IMG/VR virus record: IMGVR_UViG_3300017965_000003
Location: 1 to 46,440 of that record
Reading direction: 5' to 3' (one strand)
Length of the DNA stretch: 46,440 nucleotides
Source of the DNA: a virus
Taxonomy: Duplodnaviria; Caudoviricetes
Shown: in pieces, positions 2,284-46,085 of the stretch
How positions within the stretch are numbered: the first letter of the stretch is position 1
Layout: each line of letters opens with the position of its first letter
Position numbers and translations under genes: made by a program
The notes under the pieces: model-generated
What the model saw: the letters and a program-made list of their open reading frames with translations, nothing else
Told to the model about the DNA's origin: nothing
Database searches by the model: none

Positions 2284-2390
2284 GGTTTTTCGTTTGCCGA
2301 CGTTCGTTGGCCAACGGTTCGTCGCTTGACTTCTAGCGTTCCGCAAAATCCGGGTCTACACTTCGCGACCATGACGGCAGCCGCCCCCAG

Positions 2391-2592
2391 CAGCCTCCGG
2401 TCTCGTCCCATGCGGCGAGCGACGGTGCCCGCGTCCGCGCGGATGGCCCTGGCCCCGTGACCAGCAGCAGCACCAACCGCAGCCGCCCTCCGCAAGCCGA
2501 ACGCTCCGCGCTCCCCGCGCCGAGCCCGTGCCCGTCTCCACAACCTCCGGTCTCGCCCACGCGAGCGACGGTGCCCGCCTCCGCGCGGATGG
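2391..2592 (+). repeat. Imperfect direct repeat (~55 bp) at 2391-2446 and 2541-2592 in the terL-capsid intergenic region
   Basis: CAGCCTCCGGTCTCGTCCCATGCGGCGAGCGACGGTGCCCGCGTCCGCGCGGATGG vs CAACCTCCGGTCTCGCCCACGCGAGCGACGGTGCCCGCCTCCGCGCGGATGG. Confidence 0.9.
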
Positions 2593-2604
2593 AGCACTGT
2601 CGCG

Positions 2605-4674
2605 ATGGGCCACGCTCATGACCTCCCGGAGATCGTCTACAAGGTCTGCGACACCGACTGCGGTCTGATCGTCAAGGCGGCGCGTGCCGCCGATGAGCCG
2701 CTGACGTTCGTGATTTCGAGCGAGTCGGTCGACCTCGCGGGCGACGTCGTCGTGCAGGACGGGATGAAGCCCGCCCGCGTGCCGATCCCCGCGCAGACCG
2801 ACCACGCCGGGAAGGTGGAGAAGCAGATCGGGACGTGGCGCAACTTCGTGCGCAAGGGCCGGCAAACGCTGGCCGACCTCTACCTGCTGCCGCCCGGCAT
2901 CAGTCCGCAAGCCGACCTCGTGCGCGCGCTCGCCGACGCGGGGCTGCGGCTCGCGGCCTCGATCGGCTTCGCGCCGAACTGGGCCAAGACCGAAGAGATC
3001 ACGGACAAGGACAAGCACATCACGGGCTTCAAGTTCCTCGAAACGAGGCTGCTGGAGGTCTCGGTCGTCGTGGTCCCTGCCCAGCCCGAAGCCCTGCAAG
3101 TGCGTTCGTTGCTTCGAAACGAACGCGACCGCGCGACGCTCGATCAGATGATCGCAGAGCGGCGTCGCGGACTCGTCTCCCCCTCAGTCACCGCAGGCCG
3201 TACCCAGCCGGGTCGGCCGACCCCCGCGCTGCTGCAGCGCTCGGGGCTCGCCCGAACGGAGTCACCCACCATGAAGCTCTCCGAGAAAATCGTCGCCACG
3301 CAGGCGGAACTGAACACCCTGCGCGACGAGCAGAAGGTCACGACCGACAAGCTCTGCGAGGAAGGCACCGACGAGGAACGCGCCGCGCTGGAGGAACAGG
3401 CCAAGACGCTCGCCGATCAGATCATTCTCAAGGCGCAGTCGCTCGACACGCTCAAGGCGGCCGAGGACTCGCTCAAGCCCCGTGAGACCTCGCTGATCGT
3501 GCGCGGCGCGCAGCAGGCGGCGGCCGGCGGCGGCAGCTCCGGCGGCGAAGGGCTCGGCCCGCGCAGCCTCGCCCGCGTGCGCGCGCACCGCGACGAGGAC
3601 GTCGACGGGATGCACGTGATTCGCGCCGCCGGCGTCGTGATGGAGGCGTTCATCAAGCGCGTGCCGGTGTCGATGATCCTGGAGGAACGCTACCCAGGGC
3701 GCGAAATCATCGAGCTGGTGACGAAGGCAGCGCAGAACCCCGCGATGACCAACGTCCCCGGCTGGGCCCAGGAGCTGGTCCGCGAAAACTTCGGCGCGTT
3801 CATGGACCTCCTGCAACCCGAATCGATCGTGCCGCGCATTCCGATGCAGAAGTTTTCGTTCGACGGCTACGGCAAGATCACGATCCCGCGCCGCGCGAGT
3901 CGCACCCCGAGCCTCGCGGCCGCGTTCCGTGCCGAAGGTGCGCCGATCCGCGTCGGCCGCATCGCCCTCACGAGCGCGTACCTGACGCCGAAGTCGATGG
4001 CCGTCATCGCCGAGTTCACCCAGGAGATGTTCGACCGCTCGACGCCGAACATCGAGCAGGTCTGCCGCGACGCGATGCTCGGCGACACCGCCGTCGCGCT
4101 CGACATGGCGTTCCTCGGCGCGACCGCCGGCACGCCGACGAACCCGGCCGGCCTGCAGACCTACGCGACCGGCACCAACACGGCCGCGAGCACCGGCAAC
4201 ACGGTCGCGCAGATCACGGCCGACCTGCGCGCGCGCGTCTCGGTGATGACCAGCAAGGGTTTCGGCCGCCGCCCGGTCTGGGTCATGAGCCCCGACCGCT
4301 TGGTCGGCCTGCAGCTCGCGACGACTGCCGCCGGCACGCCCGCTTTCGCGAGCGCGGCCAACGGCATCCTGCTCGGGTTCCCGGTCTACACCTCGCTCAC
4401 GGTGCCGTCGACGATCGTCTACCTGATCGACGCGGCCGAGGTCGCTTTCGCGGGCGGCACGCCGGTCTTCAAGGCATCCGACCAAGCCACGGTGCACGAA
4501 GAAGACACGACCCCGCTGCCGATCGGCAGCACCGGCGCGCCGGCGGTCGTCGCCGCACCGGTGCGCAGCTTCTTCCAGACCAACACGCTCGGCCTGCGCG
4601 CCGTGTGGGAAGTGGACTGGAACGTGCTGTCGGCCGACGGCCCCGTGCAGACCATCACCGCCGTCGCGTGGTAA
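2605..4674 (+). CDS. Prohead protease - HK97-fold major capsid protein fusion
   Basis: N-terminal HK97-type protease motifs (VDLAGDVV, DH, ASIGFAP, LLEVSVVVVPAQPEA), coiled-coil delta-like segment, C-terminal capsid motifs (AEGAPI, LTPKSMAVI, LLGFPV, SFFQTNTLGLRA). Confidence 0.93.
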   Translation: MGHAHDLPEIVYKVCDTDCGLIVKAARAADEPLTFVISSESVDLAGDVVVQDGMKPARVPIPAQTDHAGKVEKQIGTWRNFVRKGRQTLADLYLLPPGISPQADLVRALADAGLRLAASIGFAPNWAKTEEITDKDKHITGFKFLETRLLEVSVVVVPAQPEALQVRSLLRNERDRATLDQMIAERRRGLVSPSVTAGRTQPGRPTPALLQRSGLARTESPTMKLSEKIVATQAELNTLRDEQKVTTDKLCEEGTDEERAALEEQAKTLADQIILKAQSLDTLKAAEDSLKPRETSLIVRGAQQAAAGGGSSGGEGLGPRSLARVRAHRDEDVDGMHVIRAAGVVMEAFIKRVPVSMILEERYPGREIIELVTKAAQNPAMTNVPGWAQELVRENFGAFMDLLQPESIVPRIPMQKFSFDGYGKITIPRRASRTPSLAAAFRAEGAPIRVGRIALTSAYLTPKSMAVIAEFTQEMFDRSTPNIEQVCRDAMLGDTAVALDMAFLGATAGTPTNPAGLQTYATGTNTAASTGNTVAQITADLRARVSVMTSKGFGRRPVWVMSPDRLVGLQLATTAAGTPAFASAANGILLGFPVYTSLTVPSTIVYLIDAAEVAFAGGTPVFKASDQATVHEEDTTPLPIGSTGAPAVVAAPVRSFFQTNTLGLRAVWEVDWNVLSADGPVQTITAVAW

Positions 4675-25210: not shown

Positions 25211-25284
25211 GCGTGCGAAGGTCAAGCCGGGACAATCCTGCTCGCGTCGGTCTCACCGGAGACCGGGCGAACAGGAGTACACCC

Positions 25285-27363
25285 ATGCGACGCATCATCC
25301 AAGCATGCGGCCTGCTGCTGGCGATGGCGGCCAGCCTCGTCAGCGGTGCCGACGTCTCGGTCACACCGGGGCCATCCGACCTCTTCAAGGGAAGCGCGAA
25401 GCTCTCGACGCACAGCAGGGTCGAGCAGTGCATCGACGCGGCGATTCACGCGGGCGACGGCGCGTATGCGTGTCTCACCGCGTCAACGGTCGCGGTGCAG
25501 GCAGGGACACCGAACGTCTGCGGCGCGGGCGATATCGGCGGCTGGACCGTGCCGGTGCCGACGCCGCTCGACACGACGGTGCTGGCGGCGACCGACAAGG
25601 CGCAGCCGGGTTCGCGTCTGTACTACATCAGCGCGGCGACGGGCAACGACGCGACGGGCGTCGTCTACTTCTGGGACGGCACGCAGGTGGTCGATGCGGC
25701 TGGCGCGACCTACGGGACTGACCCGATGAACCCGGTCGGCGTGAAGCCCTTCAAGCGCTGGTCGTGGGTCGCACCGCGCCGTGCGACGAACACCGACATT
25801 GGCACGACCGGCTACTTCGGCGACGCGTGGCCCGGCTTCCGTGGCGGCTACCCTGACTGGTGGCTGTTCCGGCGCGGTGAGACCTACGATATCAAGGCCG
25901 ACGTCGAGTCGTTCGACGCCGAGAAGCAGCAGGTCGGCACGAACAAGTATGCCGGCCTGACGATCCCGGGCGGCCGCAGCGCGACCGAGCGGCAGATCAT
26001 GGGCGCATACGGCGACCTCTGCGCGGCGCGCCCGCGCTTCGTCCATCCGCTGAGCGGCTTCGCCAACCGGGGCGCGCGTTCAGGCATGTTCGATTTCAAG
26101 CACGCCATGTACCAATCGCTCCACTTCGACGCGCACGACCGCCCGGCGGGCACGCACATCGGCATCAGCTGGAACACGATGACCGAGGCCAGCGTCGATA
26201 TCGTCATGGAGGACGTGTGGATCGACGGCAGCGGACTCGGCATCGGCGACGACAACGCGGGGCAGTTCCTGCTGCGTCGCGTGCTCATCACCGACAGCTT
26301 CATGGAGCACAACGAGTCGCACGCCCAGGGCCTGTACTACGAAGGCGCGCGCGTCGGCTGGCTGCGCGTCGAGGACTCGATCCTGATGCGCAACGGCTTC
26401 ACCAACGGCGACCCGTCGAAGACGCCTTGGCCGCCGACCGGCACGCAAATCTGGGACCTCTACAGCCGCAACCAGTACATCAACGGCATGTACGACTCGT
26501 CGAAGTCGGGCCTGTTCGACTCCGTGTCGATGATCGGCGCGAGCGGCGACCAGTGGCGCGGCGGCGGGCGCATCCAGCGCAACTTCCTTTACAACGGCTA
26601 CTTCAACGTCGGCGCGCGCGGCGGCTATCCCGACGAGGAAGGGTACTCGGGGCAGGTGCTGAACAACGTGTTGCAGCGCTTCGTTGGCACCGGCACCGAT
26701 GACAACAGGGGCCAGCCTGGGTGGGGCTTCGACGTCTCGGCAGGATCGGCCTTCGTCTACGTCGCGGGCAACATCGTGACCGGCGCGCAGCACCCGTCGA
26801 AATACTGGGGGCTCAAGTTCAGTCCGATCCAGCAGGACTGCTACGCGCAGCCGGTGCACCCGACGCGGAACAACAAGGCGGTCGCGAACATCGTCGATAG
26901 CGGCAGCGCGAGCGCGGGCCTGCAGGTGCTCGACGGGACGACGACCGATTGCTTCGTCGACACGATCCCCGTGCCCGGCGTGGTCGGCAACAAGATGGCC
27001 GACAACGTGGTGGTCAACGACAAGAGCGTGGAGCACGAATACGTCGCGACCGGCAAGGCACCGCCGACGACCGACACGCAGTTCAGCGGAAACCGGGTCT
27101 TCGCGAGCCGCGCCGAAGCCGCCGCCGCGCTTGGCTGGCCGGACCCGAATCGCACGCTCAAGACGTACATGAAAGCGCGGGGCGTCGACGTGAAGTCGGT
27201 CGACGGGTTCCCGGAATACTTCGCGCGCGCGACGAAGCTGCAGCGGGGCAAGTGGGACCCGCAGTGGACCGCGCGACCCATGGTCGATTACGTGCGCGAG
27301 GGCTTCGGCATGGGGCCCATCGGCGCGCAGCTCGCGGACCCGACCAGGAGCAAGACACGATGA
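25285..27363 (+). CDS. Secreted protein with probable parallel beta-helix (pectate-lyase-like) fold
   Basis: AGGAG RBS; Sec-type signal MRRIIQACGLLLAMAASLVSG; YYISAATGNDA motif; Asn/Gly-rich strands (LRVEDSILMRNG, IQRNFLYNG, VLNNVL, VAGNIV). Confidence 0.7.
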   Translation: MRRIIQACGLLLAMAASLVSGADVSVTPGPSDLFKGSAKLSTHSRVEQCIDAAIHAGDGAYACLTASTVAVQAGTPNVCGAGDIGGWTVPVPTPLDTTVLAATDKAQPGSRLYYISAATGNDATGVVYFWDGTQVVDAAGATYGTDPMNPVGVKPFKRWSWVAPRRATNTDIGTTGYFGDAWPGFRGGYPDWWLFRRGETYDIKADVESFDAEKQQVGTNKYAGLTIPGGRSATERQIMGAYGDLCAARPRFVHPLSGFANRGARSGMFDFKHAMYQSLHFDAHDRPAGTHIGISWNTMTEASVDIVMEDVWIDGSGLGIGDDNAGQFLLRRVLITDSFMEHNESHAQGLYYEGARVGWLRVEDSILMRNGFTNGDPSKTPWPPTGTQIWDLYSRNQYINGMYDSSKSGLFDSVSMIGASGDQWRGGGRIQRNFLYNGYFNVGARGGYPDEEGYSGQVLNNVLQRFVGTGTDDNRGQPGWGFDVSAGSAFVYVAGNIVTGAQHPSKYWGLKFSPIQQDCYAQPVHPTRNNKAVANIVDSGSASAGLQVLDGTTTDCFVDTIPVPGVVGNKMADNVVVNDKSVEHEYVATGKAPPTTDTQFSGNRVFASRAEAAAALGWPDPNRTLKTYMKARGVDVKSVDGFPEYFARATKLQRGKWDPQWTARPMVDYVREGFGMGPIGAQLADPTRSKTR

Positions 27364-29287: not shown

Positions 29288-29314
29288 GAAACCGGCCTCG
29301 CGCCGGTTTTTCTT
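29288..29314 (+). terminator. Terminator preceding repeat unit R1
   Basis: AAACCGGC-CTCGC-GCCGGTTT followed by TTCTT. Confidence 0.8.
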
Positions 29315-29328
29315 CGACTGTGCATTGT

Positions 29329-29400
29329 TAACGCAAAAAGCTAGACCACAGTGCGCACGAGTTAACTTTTGGAGTTACTATCTCTTTGTCGCAAACATCA
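29329..29400 (+). promoter_or_regulatory. Repeated promoter/operator unit R1
   Basis: Operators TAACG-CAAAA-AGCTA (29329-29343) and TAACT-TTTGG-AGTTA (29363-29377); -10-like TACTAT; conserved CTCTTTGTC leader. Confidence 0.85.
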
Positions 29401-29422
29401 ACCCGCACAGAGAGAACGCACC

Positions 29423-29758
29423 ATGAACACCACGACCCTCACGACCCAGAACTACGCGAACCAGATCGGCTACTCCGATGTGTCCCCCTTCGAGATCGTG
29501 CGCCGCGTCTCGGAGAAGGTCATCGAAATCCGCCCGATGACCGCCGAGCGCGACAAGACGGTCAAGCTCGACTTTCAGGTCGGCGGCTTCATGGCGCACT
29601 GCTCCAACCAGGACGACCAGAAGTGGACCATCACCAGCGACCCGGCCGCCGAGGTCCGCCGCATCCGCCTGCACAAGGATGGCTGGTGGCGTGACTCGGG
29701 CCGCAACCGCTACCGCCTCGCCGCCGAGCCGCGCCGCTTCTACGACTTCAACTTCTGA
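29423..29758 (+). CDS. Hypothetical phage protein
   Basis: First ATG downstream of R1; GYSDVSPFEIV...GGFMAHCSNQ...RFYDFNF. Confidence 0.75.
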   Translation: MNTTTLTTQNYANQIGYSDVSPFEIVRRVSEKVIEIRPMTAERDKTVKLDFQVGGFMAHCSNQDDQKWTITSDPAAEVRRIRLHKDGWWRDSGRNRYRLAAEPRRFYDFNF

Positions 29759-29813
29759 ACCCCGACCGGCTTCGCAAGGGGCCGGCATCCCAACCACCGA
29801 CCGGAACCTCACC

Positions 29814-30008
29814 ATGAATCGCAAGCCCGCCAAGACCACCGCCGCCGACTACGTCGAAACGATGATCGCCATGAAAGCTCAGATCGACGGCGCGCGCGCC
29901 TGCGGCAAGCTGGATCGCGTCGACCAGTTGTACCTGACCCGCGATGCCTACGCGGAGCAGTTCGAAGCCGAGTTCCCCCGAGAGTTCGCCGCCTACATGG
30001 CCGACTGA
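29814..30008 (+). CDS. Small hypothetical protein
   Basis: MNRKPAKTT...; codon usage. Confidence 0.6.
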   Translation: MNRKPAKTTAADYVETMIAMKAQIDGARACGKLDRVDQLYLTRDAYAEQFEAEFPREFAAYMAD

Positions 30009-30010
30009 CC

Positions 30011-30310
30011 ATGACCAAGTCACTCGCCCGCATGCTGACCGCGACCTTCCGGCCCGAGCCGGCGCGCAGGACCGACCCGCACCGCAAGCACCGCGAGCAG
30101 GCCAAGCGGCTCGCGAAGCTGCACGGCGTCGAGATCGAGCAGCTTCGCCCTGGCTACAACGTGTGGCCGCCGAGGGGGTACCCCTACGCGGACCCGTGCG
30201 AGGGCGACCACTACTGCCACGACTGGGAGGAAGTCCTCGGCGCGGTGCGCTGCTACACCGACGTGCTGGAGGGGGTCCCGAGCGAGGCGAGCCGGGTCGA
30301 CCCCGCGTAG
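30011..30310 (+). CDS. Small hypothetical protein
   Basis: Starts 2 nt after the upstream stop; codon usage. Confidence 0.65.
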   Translation: MTKSLARMLTATFRPEPARRTDPHRKHREQAKRLAKLHGVEIEQLRPGYNVWPPRGYPYADPCEGDHYCHDWEEVLGAVRCYTDVLEGVPSEASRVDPA

Positions 30311-30338
30311 CACGCGACCTGCCTTCCAACCTCCCACG

Positions 30339-30363
30339 CGCCGGCACTTTGCCGGCGTCTTTG
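30339..30363 (+). terminator. Hairpin/terminator preceding R2
   Basis: CGCCGGCA-CTT-TGCCGGCG followed by TCTTT. Confidence 0.65.
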
Positions 30364-30378
30364 CGTTGTGAGACAAAT

Positions 30379-30450
30379 TAACTAAAAAAGCTAGACTAGA
30401 GTGCGCACGAGCTAACTCTTGGAGTTACTATCTCTTTGTCCGCAACATCA
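30379..30450 (+). promoter_or_regulatory. Repeated promoter/operator unit R2
   Basis: 51/55 identical to R1 over 30386-30440 vs 29336-29390; operators TAACT-AAAAA-AGCTA and TAACT-CTTGG-AGTTA. Confidence 0.85.
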
Positions 30451-30468
30451 CTACCACGAAAGCACACC

Positions 30469-30684
30469 ATGACTACCTCCCCGACCTTCACCGTCATCAC
30501 AACCTTCGCCACGAGCTGCGGCTCGACAGACACGATGAAGAAAGTGTTTGCAAGCGCGAAAGGTGCCGAGCGCTACTGCACCGAAGAGATGAAGTGGGAA
30601 AGCACCGTTCGCGTGCAGTGCACCGAGCTGAGCATCGACGTCGAGGGGGATTTCGTGGGGGTCTCCCATACCTTCACGCGCTAG
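30469..30684 (+). CDS. Small hypothetical protein (paralogue of 31629..31835)
   Basis: First ATG after R2; TVRVQCTELSIDVEG. Confidence 0.7.
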   Translation: MTTSPTFTVITTFATSCGSTDTMKKVFASAKGAERYCTEEMKWESTVRVQCTELSIDVEGDFVGVSHTFTR

Positions 30685-30752
30685 AGGCTTCTGAGAGCGG
30701 CGCGCGCGCCGCTCCACTGAACCCTCCCGACCCACTACTCGAAAGCACAACC

Positions 30753-31268
30753 ATGACGACCCAAAAACTCACCCCCCTCGAAGCGCGCGCGATGGAAGCG
30801 GCGCGCATCAGCAGCGCAGGCAACGGCCACGACTTCGGTTTCGTCGAGGACATCATCGAGGCGATGAGCGACCTCCGACCGCAGGCTGTCGGCGGCATCG
30901 TCACCTCGCTTTCCCGCAAGCGTCTGATCTACGTCAGCGCGCCGCTCACGACCGACACGGGGACGTGGACGCAGTTCACCCTGGCCGAGGTCGAGGCAGC
31001 TCGCGAGGCGAAGGACGAGAAGCCCGCCCAGGGCATCACGGTAGACCAGTACGACGTGGCCCGCATCGCCGCCCTGGCATCCGCTGCACACGACCCGCAG
31101 ACGAACACCGAGACCGACATGCACCTGCAGCTCGCCTACGTCGCGCAGTGGCTGGCCGAGCAGGACGACGAGAACCTGCTCGAAGCCGCCCGGATCGCGA
31201 CCGGCGCAATCGAGCACATCCGCAGCGTCTACGAGCGCGAGCACGACGCCGATTTCCCGACCCTCTGA
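30753..31268 (+). CDS. Hypothetical protein with winged-helix-like N-terminus
   Basis: LTPLEARAM...QAVGGIVTSLSRKRLI pattern. Confidence 0.65.
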   Translation: MTTQKLTPLEARAMEAARISSAGNGHDFGFVEDIIEAMSDLRPQAVGGIVTSLSRKRLIYVSAPLTTDTGTWTQFTLAEVEAAREAKDEKPAQGITVDQYDVARIAALASAAHDPQTNTETDMHLQLAYVAQWLAEQDDENLLEAARIATGAIEHIRSVYEREHDADFPTL

Positions 31269-31296
31269 CCGACCCCCACGACCAGGAGAACCCACG

Positions 31297-31632
31297 ATGA
31301 ACAAGACCCGCCGCAAGGCCCTCCACCAGATCATCGAGCGCGTCAACGAACTGCGCCCGCAGCTCGACGAGCTGGCATCGCTCGCCGAGTCCTTCGAGGT
31401 GTTGAAGGACGACCTTGCGGCCCTGCGCGACGAGGAACAAGAGGGCTTCGACAACCTGTCCGAGAAGGCCCAGGAGGGCGAGCGCGGTGAGGGCATGGCG
31501 GCCGTGATCGAGCACATGACGGCCGCGCTCGACGCCATCGAGAACGTGTCTGACTCCCTCAACGGCCTCGACTTCGATCCCGACAACGTCGTCGAAGAGT
31601 TGGACAACGCATGCGGGGACTCCGAGCTGTGA
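31297..31632 (+). CDS. Acidic coiled-coil phage protein
   Basis: AGGAG RBS; MNKTRRKAL...EEQEGFDNL...ERGE, a common small phage family. Confidence 0.8.
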   Translation: MNKTRRKALHQIIERVNELRPQLDELASLAESFEVLKDDLAALRDEEQEGFDNLSEKAQEGERGEGMAAVIEHMTAALDAIENVSDSLNGLDFDPDNVVEELDNACGDSEL

Positions 31633-31835
31633 ATCGCAACCGACCCTGGGACGGCCAGATGTACTCCGTCACGACGACCTTCCTGAACCTCGACGGCCAG
31701 CCCGAGCAGGTCTACCACCGACTGTTCCATGTGAACCAAGCGCTGGCCTACGTGGCTGCCGAGACGACCTGGGCGCGCACGGTGCGCGTGGTCTGCCCCG
31801 AGCTGGCAGTCGATGTGAAGGGGCCGGCAGCCTAA
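31629..31835 (+). CDS. Small hypothetical protein (paralogue of 30469..30684)
   Basis: GTGA-coupled start (alternative ATG at 31659); TVRVVCPELAVDVKG. Confidence 0.65.
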   Translation: MNRNRPWDGQMYSVTTTFLNLDGQPEQVYHRLFHVNQALAYVAAETTWARTVRVVCPELAVDVKGPAA

Positions 31836-31863
31836 GGCCCTTCTCCCCTCCTGCACCCCCACG

Positions 31864-31892
31864 AACGCGCCGGCTTCACGCCGGCCGTTTGT
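31864..31892 (+). terminator. Hairpin/terminator preceding R3
   Basis: GCCGGC-TTCAC-GCCGGC with AACG/CGTT extension and TTTGT tail. Confidence 0.6.
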
Positions 31893-31906
31893 CGTCTGTG
31901 ATTTAT

Positions 31907-31976
31907 TGACTTAAAAAGCTAAGCCAAGCCCCCCTGTACTTAGCTTTTGGAGTTAATATCTCTTTGTCCGCAAACA
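31907..31976 (+). promoter_or_regulatory. Repeated promoter/operator unit R3
   Basis: Operators TGACT-TAAAA-AGCTA (31907-31921) and TAGCT-TTTGG-AGTTA (31941-31955); TAATAT; same spacing and leader as R1/R2 but a divergent spacer. Confidence 0.85.
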
Positions 31977-31998
31977 CAACTCCCCGAGAAGCACCACC

Positions 31999-32190
31999 AT
32001 GAAGACCTCCACGAACAACACCGCCCCGATCACCCTGGTCATCGTCCGCCACATGGATGGCCAGTACGCGATCTGGAACACCTCGCACAAGCCGGTGGTC
32101 GCGCAGACCTTCAGCAACCGGCACGCCGCCCGGGTGCTGGCCTCGCGGATGAACGCAGGCCGCGTGATTCTCCACACCCGTTCGCTGTAA
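31999..32190 (+). CDS. Small hypothetical protein
   Basis: First ATG after R3. Confidence 0.65.
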   Translation: MKTSTNNTAPITLVIVRHMDGQYAIWNTSHKPVVAQTFSNRHAARVLASRMNAGRVILHTRSL

Positions 32191-32222
32191 CTCCTACCCC
32201 CTGCACCCACCGAGACCGAATC

Positions 32223-32453
32223 ATGAATATGTCCTACTGCCAGTGGCAAAACACCGCGCTCGCGCTCCAGCAGGTCGCGGCCGACTACGAGGAACGCCTC
32301 GCCGGCGAGGCCGAGGAAAAGCTCAGCCGCGACGAGGCCGCTGCCCTGGTCCGCTGCTTCCAGCTCATGCAGGACATGCTGGAAGCAGCGAACTTCGATG
32401 AAGACACGCGCGACGCCGGCGAGCAGGCCCTCGCGATGCTTTCCACCGACTGA
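32223..32453 (+). CDS. Small acidic phage protein (MSYCxxxNT family)
   Basis: MNMSYCQWQNTALAL...LSRDEAAA. Confidence 0.7.
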   Translation: MNMSYCQWQNTALALQQVAADYEERLAGEAEEKLSRDEAAALVRCFQLMQDMLEAANFDEDTRDAGEQALAMLSTD

Positions 32454-32465
32454 CCTGGACCCCCC

Positions 32466-32690
32466 ATGACCTACGACCAAACCACCGTCCGCATCCTGCT
32501 CGACAGCAAGCTCACCGCCGCGCAGAAGCAGGGCCGCATCGAAGCACTGCTCCAGCACGCGCGCCAGCAGGCCGGCGAGGAATGCCCCGAGTGCGAGAGC
32601 ACCGACGTCGAGTGGAACGGTTGCACCGGCCGCGAAGCGGGCTACCGCTGCACCGCCTGCGATTTCCACTTCGGCCCCGACAACGAATGA
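32466..32690 (+). CDS. Zinc-ribbon protein
   Basis: CPECES...YRCTACDFHF. Confidence 0.7.
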   Translation: MTYDQTTVRILLDSKLTAAQKQGRIEALLQHARQQAGEECPECESTDVEWNGCTGREAGYRCTACDFHFGPDNE

Positions 32691-32760
32691 GGTTCCTGCG
32701 AGCAGCGCGCGCGCTGCTCCACTGGACCCTTACCTGCTCCCAAACCGAGACCACCGACCC

Positions 32761-32997
32761 ATGATTGCCTACCTCGTCAACGGCGACGATTACATCCACT
32801 ACGCCACCTTGGCCGAAGCCCACGAGGCCGCCCGCTTCATGGGCGACGGCGCGAGCATCGAGCGACTGAAGATCGCCACCGACAAGGCGACCATCCTCCG
32901 CATCCTGAACTGCCAGGGCGGCTACGTCACCGCGACCCTCGCGCGCTGGGAGCTGACCGCCTCTGGCGACCTGCTCGCTGTCGCCGTCGAGGCGTGA
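32761..32997 (+). CDS. Small hypothetical protein
   Basis: Codon usage; position in the small-gene array. Confidence 0.6.
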   Translation: MIAYLVNGDDYIHYATLAEAHEAARFMGDGASIERLKIATDKATILRILNCQGGYVTATLARWELTASGDLLAVAVEA

Positions 32998-33026
32998 CTC
33001 CACGCAACCAAGAAGGACCCCGCACC

Positions 33027-33239
33027 ATGAACATCCCGACCCCCGCCAAGGTCCGCGAGGCCCGCCTCGCCGCCGGCCTGAACCAATCCGAGGCAGCCGC
33101 GCTGGTGCACTTCTGCCACCTCACGCGCTGGTCGGAGATCGAACGCGGCGTGAAGCCGATGAGCCTTCCGCGCTGGGAACTGTTCCTCATCAAGACCGGC
33201 CAGCATCCGAGCATCGCAGTCCGGGCCATCACGACATGA
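33027..33239 (+). CDS. XRE-family HTH regulator (Aca-like position)
   Basis: PTPAKVREARLAAGLNQSEAAALVH...RWSEIERG...WELFLIK; AAGGA upstream. Confidence 0.85.
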   Translation: MNIPTPAKVREARLAAGLNQSEAAALVHFCHLTRWSEIERGVKPMSLPRWELFLIKTGQHPSIAVRAITT

Positions 33240-33541
33240 GGTCGACGCACCACCTCTACCTGCTGCCGCGCGCCGAGCGTGTGGCCGCGCTGCGCAAGAT
33301 GCGTGCGGCGGTCATGGCGCGCCATGCGCCGGCCGACCTCGCGCTGCTGTACGTGAACTGGGTCGACCACGAGCGCGACCTCGCCACCGTCACCGTCGAC
33401 GAAATCCGCGACGCCCTTTTCCAACACGTGCGCGCCTGCTGCCGGCGCGCGAAGGTCGCCGCCTCGGACGTCTTCGTGCGCCCGACCGCCGGCCTGCGCC
33501 TAGTCCTTTCCCCCACCACCACCAACCCTGCTACGACATGA
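33236..33541 (+). CDS. Hypothetical protein
   Basis: ATGA-coupled on both sides. Confidence 0.55.
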   Translation: MRSTHHLYLLPRAERVAALRKMRAAVMARHAPADLALLYVNWVDHERDLATVTVDEIRDALFQHVRACCRRAKVAASDVFVRPTAGLRLVLSPTTTNPATT

Positions 33542-34047
33542 GCATTCAACTGACAGACCAGCCCGCCATCTACGTGGGCACGTACGAGAAGTACAACGAT
33601 GGGAACCTCTTCGGCGCGTGGTTCCAGCTCGATCGATTCGAGAACGCGGAAGCCTTCTGGGAGGCGGCGCGCGCGCTGCACCGCGACGAGGCCGACCCGG
33701 AACTGATGTTCCAAGACTGGCAGTCCATCCCCGAGGGCATGGTCGGCGAGTCGCACACGAGCGACGACCTCTGGCCCTGGCTCAAGCTCGACGCCGAGAC
33801 CCGGGAGATCGTCCGCGTGTACCGCAAGCGGGTCAACGCCGAAGGCAGCATCGCCGACGCGCTCGACGCGTTCAGCGGGCAGTACAAAAGCCGCGCCGCC
33901 TTCGCCGAGCGGGATTTCGAGGACCAGGGTCTGGTCGTGCCCGAGCACCTGCAGGGCTTCGTCGACTGGGATCGCATGGCACTCTCACTGGAGTCCGGCG
34001 GCGTGACCTTCGCTCTCGAGGACGGAAAGCTGTGGGTGTTTGCATGA
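33538..34047 (+). CDS. ardA: Antirestriction protein ArdA (DNA mimic)
   Basis: PAIYVGTYEKYNDGNLFGAW...DEADPELMFQDW...FSGQY...FVDWDRMA; strongly acidic. Confidence 0.93.
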   Translation: MSIQLTDQPAIYVGTYEKYNDGNLFGAWFQLDRFENAEAFWEAARALHRDEADPELMFQDWQSIPEGMVGESHTSDDLWPWLKLDAETREIVRVYRKRVNAEGSIADALDAFSGQYKSRAAFAERDFEDQGLVVPEHLQGFVDWDRMALSLESGGVTFALEDGKLWVFA

Positions 34048-34415
34048 AGGACGCTGCGAAGCTGCGGACCGCGCTGGCGCACTACACCGGGACCGTTCAC
34101 TACTATCGGCACCCGTTCAGCCGCTGCACGTACACCGACGGCGTGAAGTTTTTCGCCCAGAACGCCGGCGGCGGCGCGTACTGGCTGCTGGACATTCTCC
34201 TGACCCAGCCGGAGGTCCTGCAGGCCCAGCGCGAGCACGGCATGGTGTTCTGCTGGCTCACGGTGACCCCCGACCGTAAGGCGGTGCTCCATGTCGAGCG
34301 CGATGGCGGCGAGCCCGAGCTGTACCGGCGCGCGATCGACTGGACCGACTGCCCCGAGGGCAAGTGGCTGTTCTACTTCGTCGACGACATTCTGCTGATC
34401 CCCTCGGAGTATTGA
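34044..34415 (+). CDS. Hypothetical protein (DUF6876-like)
   Basis: LAHYTGTVHYYRH...YTDGVKFFA...AYWLLD...WTDCP...ILLIPSEY. Confidence 0.75.
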   Translation: MKDAAKLRTALAHYTGTVHYYRHPFSRCTYTDGVKFFAQNAGGGAYWLLDILLTQPEVLQAQREHGMVFCWLTVTPDRKAVLHVERDGGEPELYRRAIDWTDCPEGKWLFYFVDDILLIPSEY

Positions 34416-34418
34416 CCC

Positions 34419-34880
34419 ATGCGGCTGTTCACCATGCATCAGGCAAGGGCGGCCGCGACCGCGATCGCGATCCCGGTCGGCTTCATCTTAGTCGTGGGCG
34501 GGCTCATGAGCTGGAACGACACGACGCGCCGTGAGGCACGCGCCCGGATGACACCGGCCGAGCGCGCCGCCGGCGCGGCCGAGCGAGCTGCGCGCCGACA
34601 AGCCGAGGCGGCACGGCCCGCCGGGCGTGCAGGCCAGCGCGCGATCCTCGCCCGGCTGCGTGACCCCGACTCGTTCCAGCTCGTCGCCGCGAAGCTCGTG
34701 CCGGCCACTGGCACGATCTGCTACGAGTACCGGGCGCGCAATGGCTTCGGGGGGATGAACGTCGGCGCAGCGATCTACCACCCGTCGACCTACCTCCAGA
34801 TGCGGCAGGACACGCCGGCCGGCTTCGCCGAGGACTGGCGCGCCAAGTGCTCGGACGCCGGTATCCTGCTCGACCTGTGA
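34419..34880 (+). CDS. Membrane-anchored hypothetical protein
   Basis: N-terminal TM; LRDPDS...ICYEYRARNGFGG motif. Confidence 0.7.
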   Translation: MRLFTMHQARAAATAIAIPVGFILVVGGLMSWNDTTRREARARMTPAERAAGAAERAARRQAEAARPAGRAGQRAILARLRDPDSFQLVAAKLVPATGTICYEYRARNGFGGMNVGAAIYHPSTYLQMRQDTPAGFAEDWRAKCSDAGILLDL

Positions 34881-34894
34881 CCGGAGGGCATCCC

Positions 34895-35146
34895 ATGACC
34901 GCGATCTGCTACACGACTTCGATCGACACGATGGGCGAGGCGACCGACGCCGAAGCGCGTCGCTTCCTCGACGCGCTGCAGGCCGAACTGGAGCGCTGCT
35001 ACCCGGACGCCGACGTGGAGGTCAGACGCGACGACCGCGTCAGCTCGACGGTGGTTTGGACCTCCGGGGAGGTCGACGCGGTCGAGGTCAGTCGCGTCGC
35101 GCATCGCGTTTGGGACCGGGGTGACTTCGACCTGGACCCTCCCTAG
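34895..35146 (+). CDS. Small acidic hypothetical protein
   Basis: GGAGG RBS; last gene before the terminator. Confidence 0.7.
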   Translation: MTAICYTTSIDTMGEATDAEARRFLDALQAELERCYPDADVEVRRDDRVSSTVVWTSGEVDAVEVSRVAHRVWDRGDFDLDPP

Positions 35147-35184: not shown

Positions 35185-35215
35185 TGAAAACGGCCCTCGC
35201 GGGGGCCGTTTTTCA
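35185..35215. terminator. Bidirectional Rho-independent terminator
   Basis: TGAAAACGGCCC-TCGCGG-GGGCCGTTTTTCA. Confidence 0.85.
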
Positions 35216-35531
35216 TGGCTGCGAGCAGCGCTCGCCTAGCACAGATTTCCGGGAATTCAACGACAGGTATGTGCCAGCGTGAAGTCCTTCCAGGTGCTGA
35301 GCAGGCGCGGCCACGAGACGGGCAATGGGGGGTGGGGCCTTCCGAATATCTCCGCCTTGGCCTCGTCGCGTTCGCGTGATGCCCGGCTTTCCCCAAACTA
35401 TCCCCAGAGCCGGCGCGGGATTCGCATAGCGGGGTTTGCGATCCGGTGCAAGTTGTCCCCAACGCATGCACACCCTGTGGAAAACGCAAAACCGGGGCCG
35501 CGCAAATTGGGACAAACCCCAGGTGCCCATG

Positions 35532-35581: not shown

Positions 35582-37276
35582 TCAGACCTCGGGATCGATG
35601 GGCGGGAGGGGGTCGACGTCTTCGCCGATCTCGATGTAACCGCCCTTCCGGTCGACTCGGAGCAGTCGGGATATGCCGCTCCGGGCCTTCAATTCGACGT
35701 CGACGGAGGTCCCGTCTGTCGGCCCCTTCGCGCTCCCCTTCGCGAAAATCAGGATCGATGCGAAGGTGTCGGCGACCAGTTGCCGGGCCTGCAGCCGGGC
35801 GGCGTTGTCGTGGTTTGCGACCCCCTCGGCCAGTTCGCGCCAGCGCGCGGACACGTCTTTCAGGTCGGCGCGCTGCGTGGCATGCATCTCGCGCTCGGCA
35901 TGGTCGTACTCGGCGCGCGTCTGCTTGATCTGCGCGGCGGTGGTGCGCATCCGGTCGACCACGACCTCGGGGGTCTCCTGGTCTTCGGCCTGCGCCGCGA
36001 GGTGCAGGTCGAGCAGGGTTTTCTGTTGCTTCTCCAACTTCTCCAGCCGGGCGCGCGCCGTGGCCATCTTCGCGCGCGTCTCGATGCTGCGGTCTTCGCC
36101 GTACAGCGACTGGAGGTTGATCAGCTCGCTGCAGTAGGCCATCACGGCGCGCTCGACGGCGAAGGCCGAGGTCGTCGCGTAGCCGGGGCAGTCGGGGACC
36201 GGGTTCGTCAGCAGCCGGCGGCCCATGCAGCGCAGGACCACTGCGCGCGGTCGGATGCTGCCGTCCTTGGCGAACATGCGTTGCGTGTTGGCCATCATCG
36301 TCGCGTCGCAGTAGCCGCAGCGCGCAATCTGCATGCCGGTCAGCACGTGGGTCATGAGTCCTTTGCTGCGCCGCCTGCCTCGCGACTGGCGCGCGTCCTG
36401 CAGCTCGTGCCACTGGCCCTCGGTCAGCGCGGCGGGGTAGTAACCCTCAAGAACGTAGGTCTTCTCCGTCATCGTGTCGTCCGGCATCCGGCGGCGCACC
36501 GTGACGTGCTTCTCACCGATCAGCGCGCGGCTGCGGATGGTCTTCTCGATGTGCGGCACCGAGTTCCCGTCGTCGGTCATCGCGAGCCCGCAGCGCGTCA
36601 GCTCCTTGGCGATCGCGTCGGGTCCGTGGCCCTGCAGGTAGAGCTTGACCGCTGCGCGGACGGCCAGCACCCGGTCCTCGACCAGGGTCGCGTCGTCGCG
36701 GGTGACTTCCAGCCACGCCGGGTCTTGGCCGACCAGGGGGCGTCGCTCCCGCTTGCCCTCGTTGACCCAGCGCTCGCATTCGAGCGTCAGGGTCTCCGTC
36801 TTGCGCCGCGATTTCGTGCGCGACTCTTCGTGCGCCCGGCAGGCAACGATGGTCAGCATCATGAGCTTGCCGAGGTCGTCGTTGACCGTCTCCCAGGTGT
36901 ACTCCTGCCGATCGCTCTGCGTGACGATCTTGACGCCGGCCTGCAGGATTTCGCTGAAAAGGCCCTGGGCGATGAGCGGCTTGGCGCGTGACAGCCGGTC
37001 GAGGCTTTCGACCACCAGCACCGACAGCGGCGGGACCCGACCCGTCCGGCAGGCACCGACGAAGACCCCGAGCGCGCCTTTCGTCAGGTGCTCCCCCTTG
37101 AACGCCGACAGGGCCTTGTCGGTCATGGTCAGCATGGTGTCGAGACGGAGATTGTTTTCGCGCGCGTACTGTGCGGCGTAAGCGGACTGCCGCGCTAAGC
37201 TAGTGCCCTCGCTCTGCGCGAGCGACGAGAACCGGCTGTAGCTGTAGACGAGGCCGGCAGATTGGACGGGGGTCAT
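35582..37276 (-). CDS. Large serine recombinase (integrase)
   Basis: YSYSRFSS catalytic motif, VESLDRLSR, RAHEESRTKS, recombinase domain YYPAAL, zinc ribbon CGYC...C...C, coiled coil. Confidence 0.95.
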   Translation of the reverse strand: MTPVQSAGLVYSYSRFSSLAQSEGTSLARQSAYAAQYARENNLRLDTMLTMTDKALSAFKGEHLTKGALGVFVGACRTGRVPPLSVLVVESLDRLSRAKPLIAQGLFSEILQAGVKIVTQSDRQEYTWETVNDDLGKLMMLTIVACRAHEESRTKSRRKTETLTLECERWVNEGKRERRPLVGQDPAWLEVTRDDATLVEDRVLAVRAAVKLYLQGHGPDAIAKELTRCGLAMTDDGNSVPHIEKTIRSRALIGEKHVTVRRRMPDDTMTEKTYVLEGYYPAALTEGQWHELQDARQSRGRRRSKGLMTHVLTGMQIARCGYCDATMMANTQRMFAKDGSIRPRAVVLRCMGRRLLTNPVPDCPGYATTSAFAVERAVMAYCSELINLQSLYGEDRSIETRAKMATARARLEKLEKQQKTLLDLHLAAQAEDQETPEVVVDRMRTTAAQIKQTRAEYDHAEREMHATQRADLKDVSARWRELAEGVANHDNAARLQARQLVADTFASILIFAKGSAKGPTDGTSVDVELKARSGISRLLRVDRKGGYIEIGEDVDPLPPIDPEV

Positions 37277-41838: not shown

Positions 41839-41970
41839 CGCGTCACACCTCCAGCAGAGGGACGCGATTTAAATCCCGGCCTGCATGCGTTGGTGAACAA
41901 GGCATCGACCCACGAAAGGTCATCTTGCAAATGGTTCGGGTCCGCTGTAACCCACACCTTGTTACCCGCC

Positions 41971-42020
41971 GCGCCAAGTCGCGCCAAGACGCGCCAAGAC
42001 GCGCCAGGATGCGCCAAACT
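41971..42020. repeat. Five tandem 10-bp repeats, consensus GCGCCAAGAC
   Basis: GCGCCAAGTC GCGCCAAGAC GCGCCAAGAC GCGCCAGGAT GCGCCAAACT. Confidence 0.95.
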
Positions 42021-42135
42021 GAAACCTTATTACGGGTTTTGAAATGGCCTTCGTAACTCGGTTTTTCTCGAAAAAAAATCGTCGTGCAATGAGCGCTTGC
42101 GGTGCGAAGTGGCGCGCAGTGAAATGCGCTCCGCC

Positions 42136-42438
42136 ATGCACAGAGAAACCGCATACGCCCTTCTCGGAACTCGCGACCGCAACCTCGTGTCGAGGCTTTG
42201 CGGCCTGTCGCTGAGCTGCGTCGACCACTGGCCGGAATGGCTTCCGCGCCGCAGCTCGGACGCTGTCGTGGCGGCCGCCGTGCGGCTCGAATGGACCGAG
42301 GGCGTGCGACGCCGCCCGGCGATCAAGGACCGTCTGCCGCCCCACATCGTCGAGATTCTGGCCGACGTGTCCGACGAGTACGTGCCCGTGGCACCAACCG
42401 GGCCGTTCGTGCCGGAAGTCGAGAGCGCGTCGGCCTGA
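42136..42438 (+). CDS. Cro-like HTH protein
   Basis: AYALLG...LVSRLCGLSLSCVDHWPEWLP; first gene of the rightward early operon. Confidence 0.6.
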   Translation: MHRETAYALLGTRDRNLVSRLCGLSLSCVDHWPEWLPRRSSDAVVAAAVRLEWTEGVRRRPAIKDRLPPHIVEILADVSDEYVPVAPTGPFVPEVESASA

Positions 42439-42467
42439 CGCAACCTGCCACGATCTCGGTCGTCTCC

Positions 42468-44256: not shown

Positions 44257-44356
44257 ACCCGATCGGTCATGGCACCACTGCCGGCGCACGATCCACGAAA
44301 GGCGATCCTGTGCAGCGCGTCGGTACGTGCCTGACCGACCGAACCGATGGAGGACG

Positions 44357-45244
44357 ATGATGGTCAGCCGAGCAGCCAAGCAGACGACGGCCCAGGCCGG
44401 CATGCAAGCGGTCTACCGCAAGACGGCCGACCTCGTGCCCTACGCCCGCAACGCCCGGGTCCACACGCCCAACCAGATCGCGCAGATCAAGTCGCTCATC
44501 GTCGAGTACGGGTGGACGAATCCGGTACTGGCCGATACCGATGGCATCGTGGCAGGTCACGGTCGAGTCATGGCCGCCAACGAGCTGTACGAAGCCGGCG
44601 TGTCGATCCGCCTTCCAAGCGGTGACCTGCTGCCGGCCGGCACGGTGCCGGTCATCGACTGCACCGGTTGGTCGCAGACGCAGCGGCGCGCGTACATCAT
44701 CGCGGACAACAAGTCGGCCCTGAACGCGAGCTGGGACAACGAGCTGCTGCAGCTCGAATTGGCCGAGCTGAACGCGCTTGCCTTCGACATGAACCTGATC
44801 GGCTTCACCGAGGACGAGCTGATCGAAATGGTCGAGGGCGAGGCCGACGAAGCCTCGTTGCGGCACTACGCCGAGACGGTGAACACGCCGGTCTACAGCC
44901 CTAAGGGAGACAAGCCGACGACGAGCGCGCTGGTCGACTCCACGAAGCGGCAGGAGCTGACCGACGCGATTCGCGCATCGTCCGAAATCACCGAAGACGA
45001 ACGTGCGTTCCTGCTGCTGGCAGCGGCGCGTCACAACGTCTTCGATTACCACCAGATCGCGGAGTATTACTGCCACGCGAGCCCGGCCATGCAGTGCCTG
45101 ATGGAGGACTCGGCCCTGGTCATCATCGACTTCAAGAAGGCCATCACGGCCGGCTTCGTGCGCATGAGCGAAAGGCTCGGCGAGGTCTTCCAGGACAGCT
45201 ACCCCGATGCGGACGACGGAGGCTCGGATGACGATGCGCAGTGA
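44357..45244 (+). CDS. ParB/Srx N-terminal domain fused to an uncharacterised C-terminal domain
   Basis: LVPYARNARVH...YGWTNPVL...AGHGRV...YIIADNK...WD; C-terminal FLLLAAARHNVFDY...LMEDSALVIIDF. Confidence 0.85.
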   Translation: MMVSRAAKQTTAQAGMQAVYRKTADLVPYARNARVHTPNQIAQIKSLIVEYGWTNPVLADTDGIVAGHGRVMAANELYEAGVSIRLPSGDLLPAGTVPVIDCTGWSQTQRRAYIIADNKSALNASWDNELLQLELAELNALAFDMNLIGFTEDELIEMVEGEADEASLRHYAETVNTPVYSPKGDKPTTSALVDSTKRQELTDAIRASSEITEDERAFLLLAAARHNVFDYHQIAEYYCHASPAMQCLMEDSALVIIDFKKAITAGFVRMSERLGEVFQDSYPDADDGGSDDDAQ

Positions 45245-46085
45245 CTTCGCCGCGCTGATCCTCACGCATGGCCGACCCGACCGCGTGCTGACGTTCAACA
45301 CGCTGCGTCGCTGCGGGTACACGGGCCGCATCATCATCGTCGTCGACAACGAGGACAAGACGTACGACCAGTACCGGGCGCGCTTCGCCGAGGTCGTGGT
45401 CTTCGACAAGAAGGCGGTCGCGGCACGCATCGACGAAGGCGACAACTTCAACGATCGGCGCGCGATCATCTACGCGCGGAACGCGAGCTTCGACGTCGCG
45501 CGTGACCTCGGCCTGCGGTACTTCATCCAGCTCGACGACGACTACACGCGGTTCAACCACAAGCGCAAGCCGGACAACACGTACCACGATGCGCGCATCC
45601 TGAATCTCGATGCGGTCTTCACGGTCATGGTCGACTACTTCGAGCAGGCACCTCGGGTGCATGCCCTCGCGATGGCGCAGGGCGGCGACTTCATGGGCGG
45701 GCCTGCAGGCACCAACTGGCGCAAGCCGAGTCGCAAGTGCATGAACAGCTTCATCTGCGCGGTCGATCGGCCCTTCGAGTTCTCGGGTCGGATCAACGAG
45801 GACGTGAACACGTACACGCACCTCGGCTCGCGCGGTGGTCTGTTCCTGACGACCATGTGCGTCGGCCTGCAGCAGCTCATGACCCAGGCCAACCCAGGTG
45901 GCATGACGGAGATGTACCTCGCGAGCGGGACCTACGTGAAGTCCTTCTACAGCGTGATGTACCAGCCTTCGTCGGTCACGATCGGCCTCTACCCGACCGA
46001 GAACACCCGCCTGCACCATGTCGTCGAGTGGCGCAACACGGTCCCCGCGATCCTCGACGAGAGCTGGAAGAAAGTCCCTGCATGA
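45228..46085 (+). CDS. GT-A fold glycosyltransferase (TET-associated/GREB1-like type)
   Basis: ILTHGRP, IVVDNED, YARN, QLDDDY (DxD), MNSF, GRINEDVN, TQANPGGMT, YVKSFY, RLHH. Confidence 0.85.
   Translation: MTMRSDFAALILTHGRPDRVLTFNTLRRCGYTGRIIIVVDNEDKTYDQYRARFAEVVVFDKKAVAARIDEGDNFNDRRAIIYARNASFDVARDLGLRYFIQLDDDYTRFNHKRKPDNTYHDARILNLDAVFTVMVDYFEQAPRVHALAMAQGGDFMGGPAGTNWRKPSRKCMNSFICAVDRPFEFSGRINEDVNTYTHLGSRGGLFLTTMCVGLQQLMTQANPGGMTEMYLASGTYVKSFYSVMYQPSSVTIGLYPTENTRLHHVVEWRNTVPAILDESWKKVPA

Follow-up and report, generated by a model that had tools for sequence, protein, structure and literature searches.

Comparison with Described Aca Regulons

Searches for anti-CRISPR (Acr) and other counter-defense genes are guided chiefly by Aca genes and the operators that go with them. 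That one Aca protein may govern several promoters is already published: Available passages of Feussner et al. 2026 (PMC13551039) place Aca sites before up to three neighboring operons in most Aca families, as shown for Aca14, and those of Shehreen et al. 2022 (PMC9410906) describe two repeats per promoter, also for Aca10. We compare these systems with a small-gene cluster at 29288–35146 of a 46,440-base, 67% G+C contig of a soil-type tailed virus (Duplodnaviria; Caudoviricetes; IMG/VR record IMGVR_UViG_3300017965_000003), the whole of which is called the window below. The cluster comprises 17 open reading frames (ORFs) between 29423 and 35146, among them ardA and a gene for an XRE helix-turn-helix (HTH) protein at 33027, and it contains three copies (R1–R3) of a hairpin–operator–operator/−10 cassette.

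We consider the following reading probable without being secure. The three cassettes would split the cluster into operons of 3, 4, and 10 genes; the Aca10-like HTH protein, encoded in the third operon, would bind all six cassette palindromes as a dimer and repress the three promoters; and entry of the DNA would bring a burst of ArdA and other likely counter-defense proteins, followed by shut-off.

The nearest counterpart is Aca10, from the Pseudomonas citronellolis acrIC7-acrIC6-aca10 operon (structure 7XI5; available text of PMC9410881). Both systems have a homologous 65–70-residue (aa) XRE HTH protein ending a small-gene operon, a palindrome that overlaps the −10 in the same register with the shared core C-T/G-C-N-N-N-G-A/C-G, and the dimer salt-bridge residues. 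They differ in that the window protein has one extra residue and another recognition helix, its predicted site is 15 rather than 19 bp, paired operators stand in three promoters, and ArdA rather than AcrIC6/7 is the identified cargo. Unlike the strong consensus −35/−10 promoters ascribed to Aca proteins generally in excerpts of PMC9410906, and unlike Aca10, the window has a −10 and no TTG −35 in all three units.

The multi-operon regulons of Aca1, Aca2, Aca11, Aca13, and Aca14 (excerpts of PMC13551039) share with the window one regulator with sites before at most three neighboring operons, mostly unannotated small genes, and RNA hairpins between genes. They differ in that the window's clade and operator are not among the sequences checked, no acr gene was found in the window, and its whole 73-nt cassette is triplicated together with a terminator. 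The IncN CUP regulon (ArdK/ArdR, ardA/ardB; available text of PMC5371602) likewise has repeated promoter and repressor-site elements heading co-oriented antirestriction operons, and its repeats can mediate recombination. CUP lies in a plasmid leading region under ArdK, whereas the window is a tailed-phage genome with an Aca10-like HTH protein and short, 73-nt repeats; the resemblance, drawn from layout and not from sequence kinship, is architectural.

The HTH clade and operator appear to be undescribed. We found no description of either in the open-access literature searched; the canonical helix word occurs 66 times in the sequence supplement of PMC9410906, whereas RWSEYE and RWAEYE are absent both there and from the AcaFinder supplements. 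The AcaFinder Aca10 model used 1,508 proteins, and published sets may already include the clade without its having been noticed. Promoters without a TTG −35 and a 43-nt hairpin repeat with compensatory changes are also new. A sister clade with its own predictable operator would widen the guide to clusters that Aca10-based searches did not list, and Aca10 and this clade form a natural pair for studying the effect of a single-residue change in a helix on the length of the operator.

Three Cassettes Head Predicted Operons

The 73-nt unit begins at 29328, 30378, and 31906, with identities of 100, 88, and 68%. The palindrome TAACT-N5-AGTTA, allowing two mismatches, occurs at exactly six sites in the 46,440 bases (starting at 29329, 29363, 30379, 30413, 31907, and 31941), with a spacing of 34 bp within every unit. 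The chance mean was 1.16, and none of 100 shuffles reached six, so the identically spaced units described in the initial annotation hold up. Its remark that the R3 spacer had diverged and the operators had not is borne out as well: The spacer retains 7/19 bases relative to R1 and 5/19 relative to R2, versus 26/30 for the R3 operators (Fisher P = 5e-4 and 4e-5, respectively), a contrast in which operator 2 is confounded with the promoter and operator 1 is free of that.

Operator 1 occupies 29329–29343 in R1, 30379–30393 in R2, and 31907–31921 in R3. Operator 2 and the −10 box together span 29363–29381, 30413–30431, and 31941–31959 on the plus strand, the strand of all cluster genes; in R1 the operator covers 29363–29377 and the box 29376–29381. 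The boxes, TACTAT, TACTAT, and TAATAT in R1–R3, overlap operator 2 as first annotated, each beginning on its last TA, and R3 operator 2 thereby places an Aca-type inverted repeat in the core promoter of the HTH gene's own operon. The CTCTTTG that follows, present as reported, probably represents the discriminator and the start site, not a leader. Transcription is predicted to start near 29388, 30438, and 31966; with the first of these, the operator centers lie at about −52 (operator 1) and −18 (operator 2). An A-tract in operator 1 could act as an UP element. An exact search of viral contigs with the operator-2/−10 string returned four single matches.

The GC hairpins were correctly noted as part of each unit, and their U-rich tails recast them as predicted terminators of whatever precedes. 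All lie on the plus strand: the R1 hairpin and U-tract at 29288–29314 (−13.2 kcal/mol, z = −2.5; upstream unit), the R2 hairpin at 30338–30366 (unit R1), and, by folding the weaker candidate, the R3 hairpin at 31862–31896 (unit R2). A strong hairpin and U-tract at 35185–35217 (−23.7 kcal/mol, z = −4.6) closes the cluster. Each unit opens with such a hairpin and tail, so the cassettes probably keep three operons (3, 4, and 10 genes) insulated from one another.

The HTH Protein Falls in a Sister Clade of Aca10

The 70-aa protein encoded at 33027–33239, the predicted repressor of R1–R3, is related to Aca10 by profile and structure-database matches. Pfam HTH_31 matches at E = 2e-5, just under the cut-off; the only solved relative and best PDB match is 7XI5 (Aca10, E = 1e-9), and a profile of the clade again finds Aca10 best (E = 5e-16). 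The protein shows the sequence homology of Aca10 (HTH_31, WELF helix) and keeps H30, E52, and K57, residues of the homodimer that Aca10 forms through helix 4, and the Aca10 DNA residue Q22. Kinship with Aca3 or KorC was considered first and dropped once Aca10 proved the best PDB match.

Two defining features of Aca10 are missing from this Aca10-like system. The recognition helix α3, called "completely conserved" in the available text of PMC9410881, is replaced by an RWxE(Y/I)ExG helix preceded by one inserted residue. The published 19-bp operator, ATACGCTCA-N-TGAGCGTAT, is absent from the genome, where the matrix for the canonical site (matrix B, below) reaches at best 6.2 bits, in coding DNA; in Aca10, the site ATACGCTCATTGAGCGTAT lies between −35 and −10 (PMC9410881, as available). 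A full-library search with the HTH protein gave 741 representatives at E ≤ 0.001, and many of the best 150, inspected by eye, share the insertion and an RWxEYExG helix. The protein is accordingly placed by its sequence in a broad sister clade of Aca10 and is not a one-off.

Some relatives (P0003, P0005, P0018, P0019, P0033, and P0059) carry two or three tandem Aca10-like HTH domains per chain. No cultured phage of the clade was found; the Aca10-type records found were four Ralstonia phages only, all with canonical Aca10. In three of these, Raharianne, Albius, and Hyacinthe, the canonical gene is unannotated (L007 8058–8095 and 9001–9156), and Raharianne has a near-perfect Aca10 operator between −35 and −10 of the upstream small-gene operon; this phage was used as positive control. 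Searches for loci by single proteins gave two for the HTH protein, two for ArdA, and none for the integrase. A metagenome scan for the RWSEIERG helix variant gave two loci: the window's own record, which was excluded, and one with only 119 nt of upstream DNA.

Operator Family Tracks HTH Clade in Compared Loci

Across the phages compared, the predicted operator family tracks the HTH clade, almost without overlap with canonical Aca10. We fetched 48 viral loci by clade alignment and kept the 37 with an RWxE(Y/I)E helix, dropping 11 with other helices; near-copy removal left 33 (set A). The 31 loci with the canonical helix were reduced to 21 in the same way (set B). Matrices A and B were built from these relatives only, with the window excluded, and hits were counted at a cut-off of 13 bits within 4 kb upstream. 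Matrix A, TAACGC-N3-GCGTTA, describes a 15-bp operator that scores ≥13 bits upstream of 20/33 A loci, downstream of 0/33, and in 1/21 B loci. These counts were unchanged when each locus was left out with its tree neighbors, and the matrix matched in 1 of 46 unrelated phage loci. Matrix B, which recovered the published 19-bp Aca10 site, matched in 18/21 B loci and 0/33 A loci.

In a tree of 63 HTH proteins—built from few columns, with rough support and the window's operator label set by us—the operator label needs one change (support 96/93), against a shuffled mean of 13.9. The window lies outside the supported canonical Aca10 branch (96/93). When seven left-out loci were added, six had neither operator and one, on a long branch, had a matrix-A match.

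Applied to the genome, the window-free matrix A ranks all six palindromes among its top seven positions (null mean 1.6 sites, maximum 4), so the HTH protein likely represses all three units. Their scores are 19.0 bits for R1 operator 1, the best site of the genome, 12.7 and 12.2 for R2 operators 1 and 2, 11.5 for R1 operator 2, and 10.1 and 9.0 for R3 operators 2 and 1. The seventh site, at 24388 (15.2 bits), lies within coding sequence, lacks an in-register −10, and was treated as chance. A reverse test, in which loci were chosen by operator pattern alone, found the HTH encoded in 0 of 121 genome loci (80 with full flanks) while its control passed; it is uninformative, since the roughly 950 pattern matches in 596 Gb are close to the chance estimate of about 1,100.

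The cassette itself recurs. The nearest phages by cargo and recombinase, L015 and L016, have one copy each, with operators spaced 35 and 33 bp apart, and on this comparison the window appears to have triplicated a cassette that it shares with these phages. Several operator clusters occur in 7/33 clade loci, and the −10 begins on the operator's last TA in clade relatives too. Another locus, L092, shares cargo with the window at 2200–4500: ORFs 30011 and 34044 have homologues there, and 32761 seems to have one as judged by eye. This locus uses three cassettes with a different palindrome, GTTA-N5-TAAC, that adjoin a small gene, ribbon-helix-helix-like by eye. Regulator and operator appear to be swappable over a common cargo pool.

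ArdA and the Accompanying Genes

The 169-aa ArdA (33538–34047) is the sole inhibitor identified in the cluster, as judged from profile matches: Its match to PF07275 is full length (positions 1–152 of 155, 77.9 bits, E = 2e-21), with assignment to phrog_2059 and a weak match to 2W82, and its 32 acidic residues (D+E) give an isoelectric point (pI) of 4.4. ArdA proteins inhibit type I restriction-modification. The cluster was first described as about 17 small, often acidic ORFs with ardA and an XRE HTH gene, which agrees with what we find; 9 of the 17 products have a pI below 5.5. Once ardA and the HTH gene are set aside, the remaining 15 genes have no inhibitor family match in Pfam, PHROGs, or NCBIfam, so an anti-defense role for them would be guilt by association only. 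The cluster thus supplies 15 candidate genes, predicted to be co-regulated, besides ArdA.

Unit R1 begins with a 111-aa ORF (29423–29758; phrog_19789; 44 homologues including itself) whose model (predicted local distance difference test score 91) resembles an all-β SH3/Tudor-like barrel, with a best Z of 3.4 and thus no clear structural match, and continues with two ORFs at 29814–30310, a 64-aa acidic product and a 99-aa product with a 38% homologue in L092. In R2, a 71-aa ORF (30469–30684), a paralogue of ORF 31659 (35%, E = 6e-11) and 52% identical to the first gene of L016, is followed by a 171-aa ORF (30753–31268). The N-terminal 80 aa of the latter are winged-helix-like, a lead only, with all structural neighbors under the naming bar. 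The initial annotation had passed over this HTH-like protein; one weak PADLOC match of it to PtuB (E = 5e-5) was not taken as real. A 111-aa acidic coiled-coil ORF (phrog_4068) and a 58-aa ORF starting at 31659 or 31611 complete the unit (31297–31835).

Unit R3 has four ORFs before the HTH gene (31999–32997): a basic 63-aa product, an acidic 76-aa product (phrog_8760), a 74-aa zinc ribbon, and a 78-aa product. Besides ardA, three further ORFs lie within 33236–35146, encoding 101 aa at 33236, a membrane-anchored 153-aa product at 34419, and an acidic 83-aa product at 34895. The DUF6876 protein at 34044–34415 has a DUF960-like fold, matching 2R41 (Z 8.1, root-mean-square deviation 3.1, 90 residues aligned), a protein of unknown function; no paper on DUF6876 was found in the open-access literature searched. 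Among relatives, cargo matches were DUF932, DUF7249, ProQ-C-like, NinX, HD, AlpA, and one Aca2/YdiL-like protein.

A second repeat, also absent from the initial annotation, is a 43-nt irregular intergenic hairpin that follows a stop codon at 30684–30726 (z = −3.0) and again at 32689–32731 (z = −3.5), both on the plus strand. The copies fold alike and differ by two double-sided changes plus one wobble change (G-C to G-U), thin compensatory evidence given two copies. It had no Rfam match, none in viral contigs, and none by regular expression in the fetched loci; a 13-nt piece of it recurs near 35221. In unit R1, L015, and L016, the first gene is followed by a GC hairpin of plainer form. An RNase III site of the kind present in early RNA of phage T7, a stabilizer, or an Aca-type RNA site are leads for its role.

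Alternative Explanations

Several observations weigh against repression of a counter-defense set by the HTH protein. Its Aca10 DNA-reading residues R34, Q37, and R44 are T, S, and K, and dimer residue G49 is P. The matrix A operator is absent from 13/33 A loci, two of which have <40 nt of upstream DNA; its seed ranked in the top twelve when palindromes were sought de novo in set A but was picked with knowledge of the window. Five of the six window operators (9.0–12.7 bits) fall below the 13-bit cut-off because T/A replaces the G/C of the clade consensus at the third base out from the center; the T/A variant is present on one operator side in L019 and L046. All three units lack a σ70 −35 (TTG) 16–18 nt before the −10, so promoter strength is not evident. 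The expectation that the unannotated ORFs include new inhibitors found no backing: Pfam, PHROGs, and NCBIfam gave no Acr or other inhibitor family among the 17 ORFs apart from ArdA, and Foldseek and VIA-align listed no inhibitor for the folds of ORFs 29423 and 34044, which does not exclude one. Nor did Pfam or NCBIfam give such a family among 60 cargo proteins of relatives, searched out of 72 selected ORFs after 12 overlapping or doubtful ones were left out; the Acr families are incompletely represented in profile libraries. What was initially proposed as an anti-defense regulon divides in two: Comparison with Aca10 and the clade operator gives the regulatory half good support, and the anti-defense half has ArdA to speak for it. 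These cargo results, together with the lack of an ArdA homologue in any clade locus and the observation that Aca-like genes frequently have no accompanying acr gene (PMC9410906, in part), would fit the same regulator and repression acting on a general early accessory or host-takeover set, with ArdA as the sole defense inhibitor and "anti-defense island" an overstatement. We think this unlikely: ArdA and the regulator share an operon, small acidic proteins make up 9 of 17 products, and most divergent inhibitors escape profile libraries. In published sets, moreover, over half of the genes under Aca control lack annotation (PMC13551039, as available).

The promoters allow a different proposal, in which the HTH protein would be a dual switch, with operator 1, at about −52, recruiting polymerase to −35-less promoters and operator 2 blocking the −10, to give a delayed pulse. 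Restriction-modification controller proteins provide the model. In its favor, a TTG at −35 occurs in 0/3 window and 4/16 clade promoters versus 15/16 canonical Aca10 promoters (P = 2e-4), a count that leaves out 10/26 A sites and 2/18 B sites without TANNNT in the two registers tested, and operators are paired at 33–35 bp in 5/33 clade loci and at none of 18 canonical sites. The loss of the −35 is nevertheless not tied to operator 1: L014, L019, and L029, with single operators, also lack it, and the paired L031 and L046 have one, a pattern that favors promoters independent of a −35 over activation. With an UP element as another possible use of the operator 1 A-tract, and with every tested Aca protein a repressor (PMC9410906, in part), we regard a dual switch as quite improbable. 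Least plausible, and by some way, is that something else binds the palindromes: the 30753 product, which has winged-helix structural neighbors, a host factor, or an unrecognized immunity repressor. The departure of the window operators from the clade consensus and the lack of a visible CI-like gene near 41.9–42.1 kb would suit such a binder, but from phage to phage the operator family goes with the HTH clade, no clade locus has a 30753 homologue, and the palindrome occurs nowhere else in the genome, unlike an immunity operator. Repression by the HTH protein remains the preferred reading. A bolder extension of it, which we regard as less likely than not, is that 33027 represents an undescribed Aca family, sister to Aca10, whose insertion goes with the 15-bp operator; that paired-operator, −35-less promoters, perhaps with activator plus repressor function, occur in many uncultured phages; and that the other 15 ORFs, accompanied by the repeated intergenic RNA hairpin, include new immunity inhibitors. 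In that case, protein plus operator would serve as markers for a large and unexplored set of early genes.

Genome Setting

Gene order resembles that of a temperate tailed phage. Genes for terminase, protease-capsid, portal, and tail proteins (labels assigned by eye from translations) precede the small-gene region, a serine recombinase, and recombination/replication genes. The large serine recombinase borders the cluster on the minus strand (35582–37276; Pfam and PHROGs) and is closest to those of Burkholderia phages, with 37% identity to Bcep176; it faces the cluster here and is co-oriented with it in L015 and L016, the closest relatives of the window (39% identity). The terminase is 53% like one in Paraburkholderia and 64% like one on a contig binned as an actinobacterium, and the sole named genome with the HTH clade is a Pararobbsia. 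From the recombinase, terminase, and Pararobbsia matches we infer a betaproteobacterial host. Despite the recombinase, no CI-like repressor gene was seen at the early divergent region 41840–42440, where divergence lies near 41.9–42.1 kb.

Between the tail genes and the small-gene region, a 716-aa gene (25213–27363) has a signal-peptide-like start and no Pfam or PHROGs family match. Two genes at 44327–46085, without an NCBIfam match, look by eye as if they encode ParB-type and glycosyltransferase-like proteins; such pairs are found in phage DNA-modification loci.

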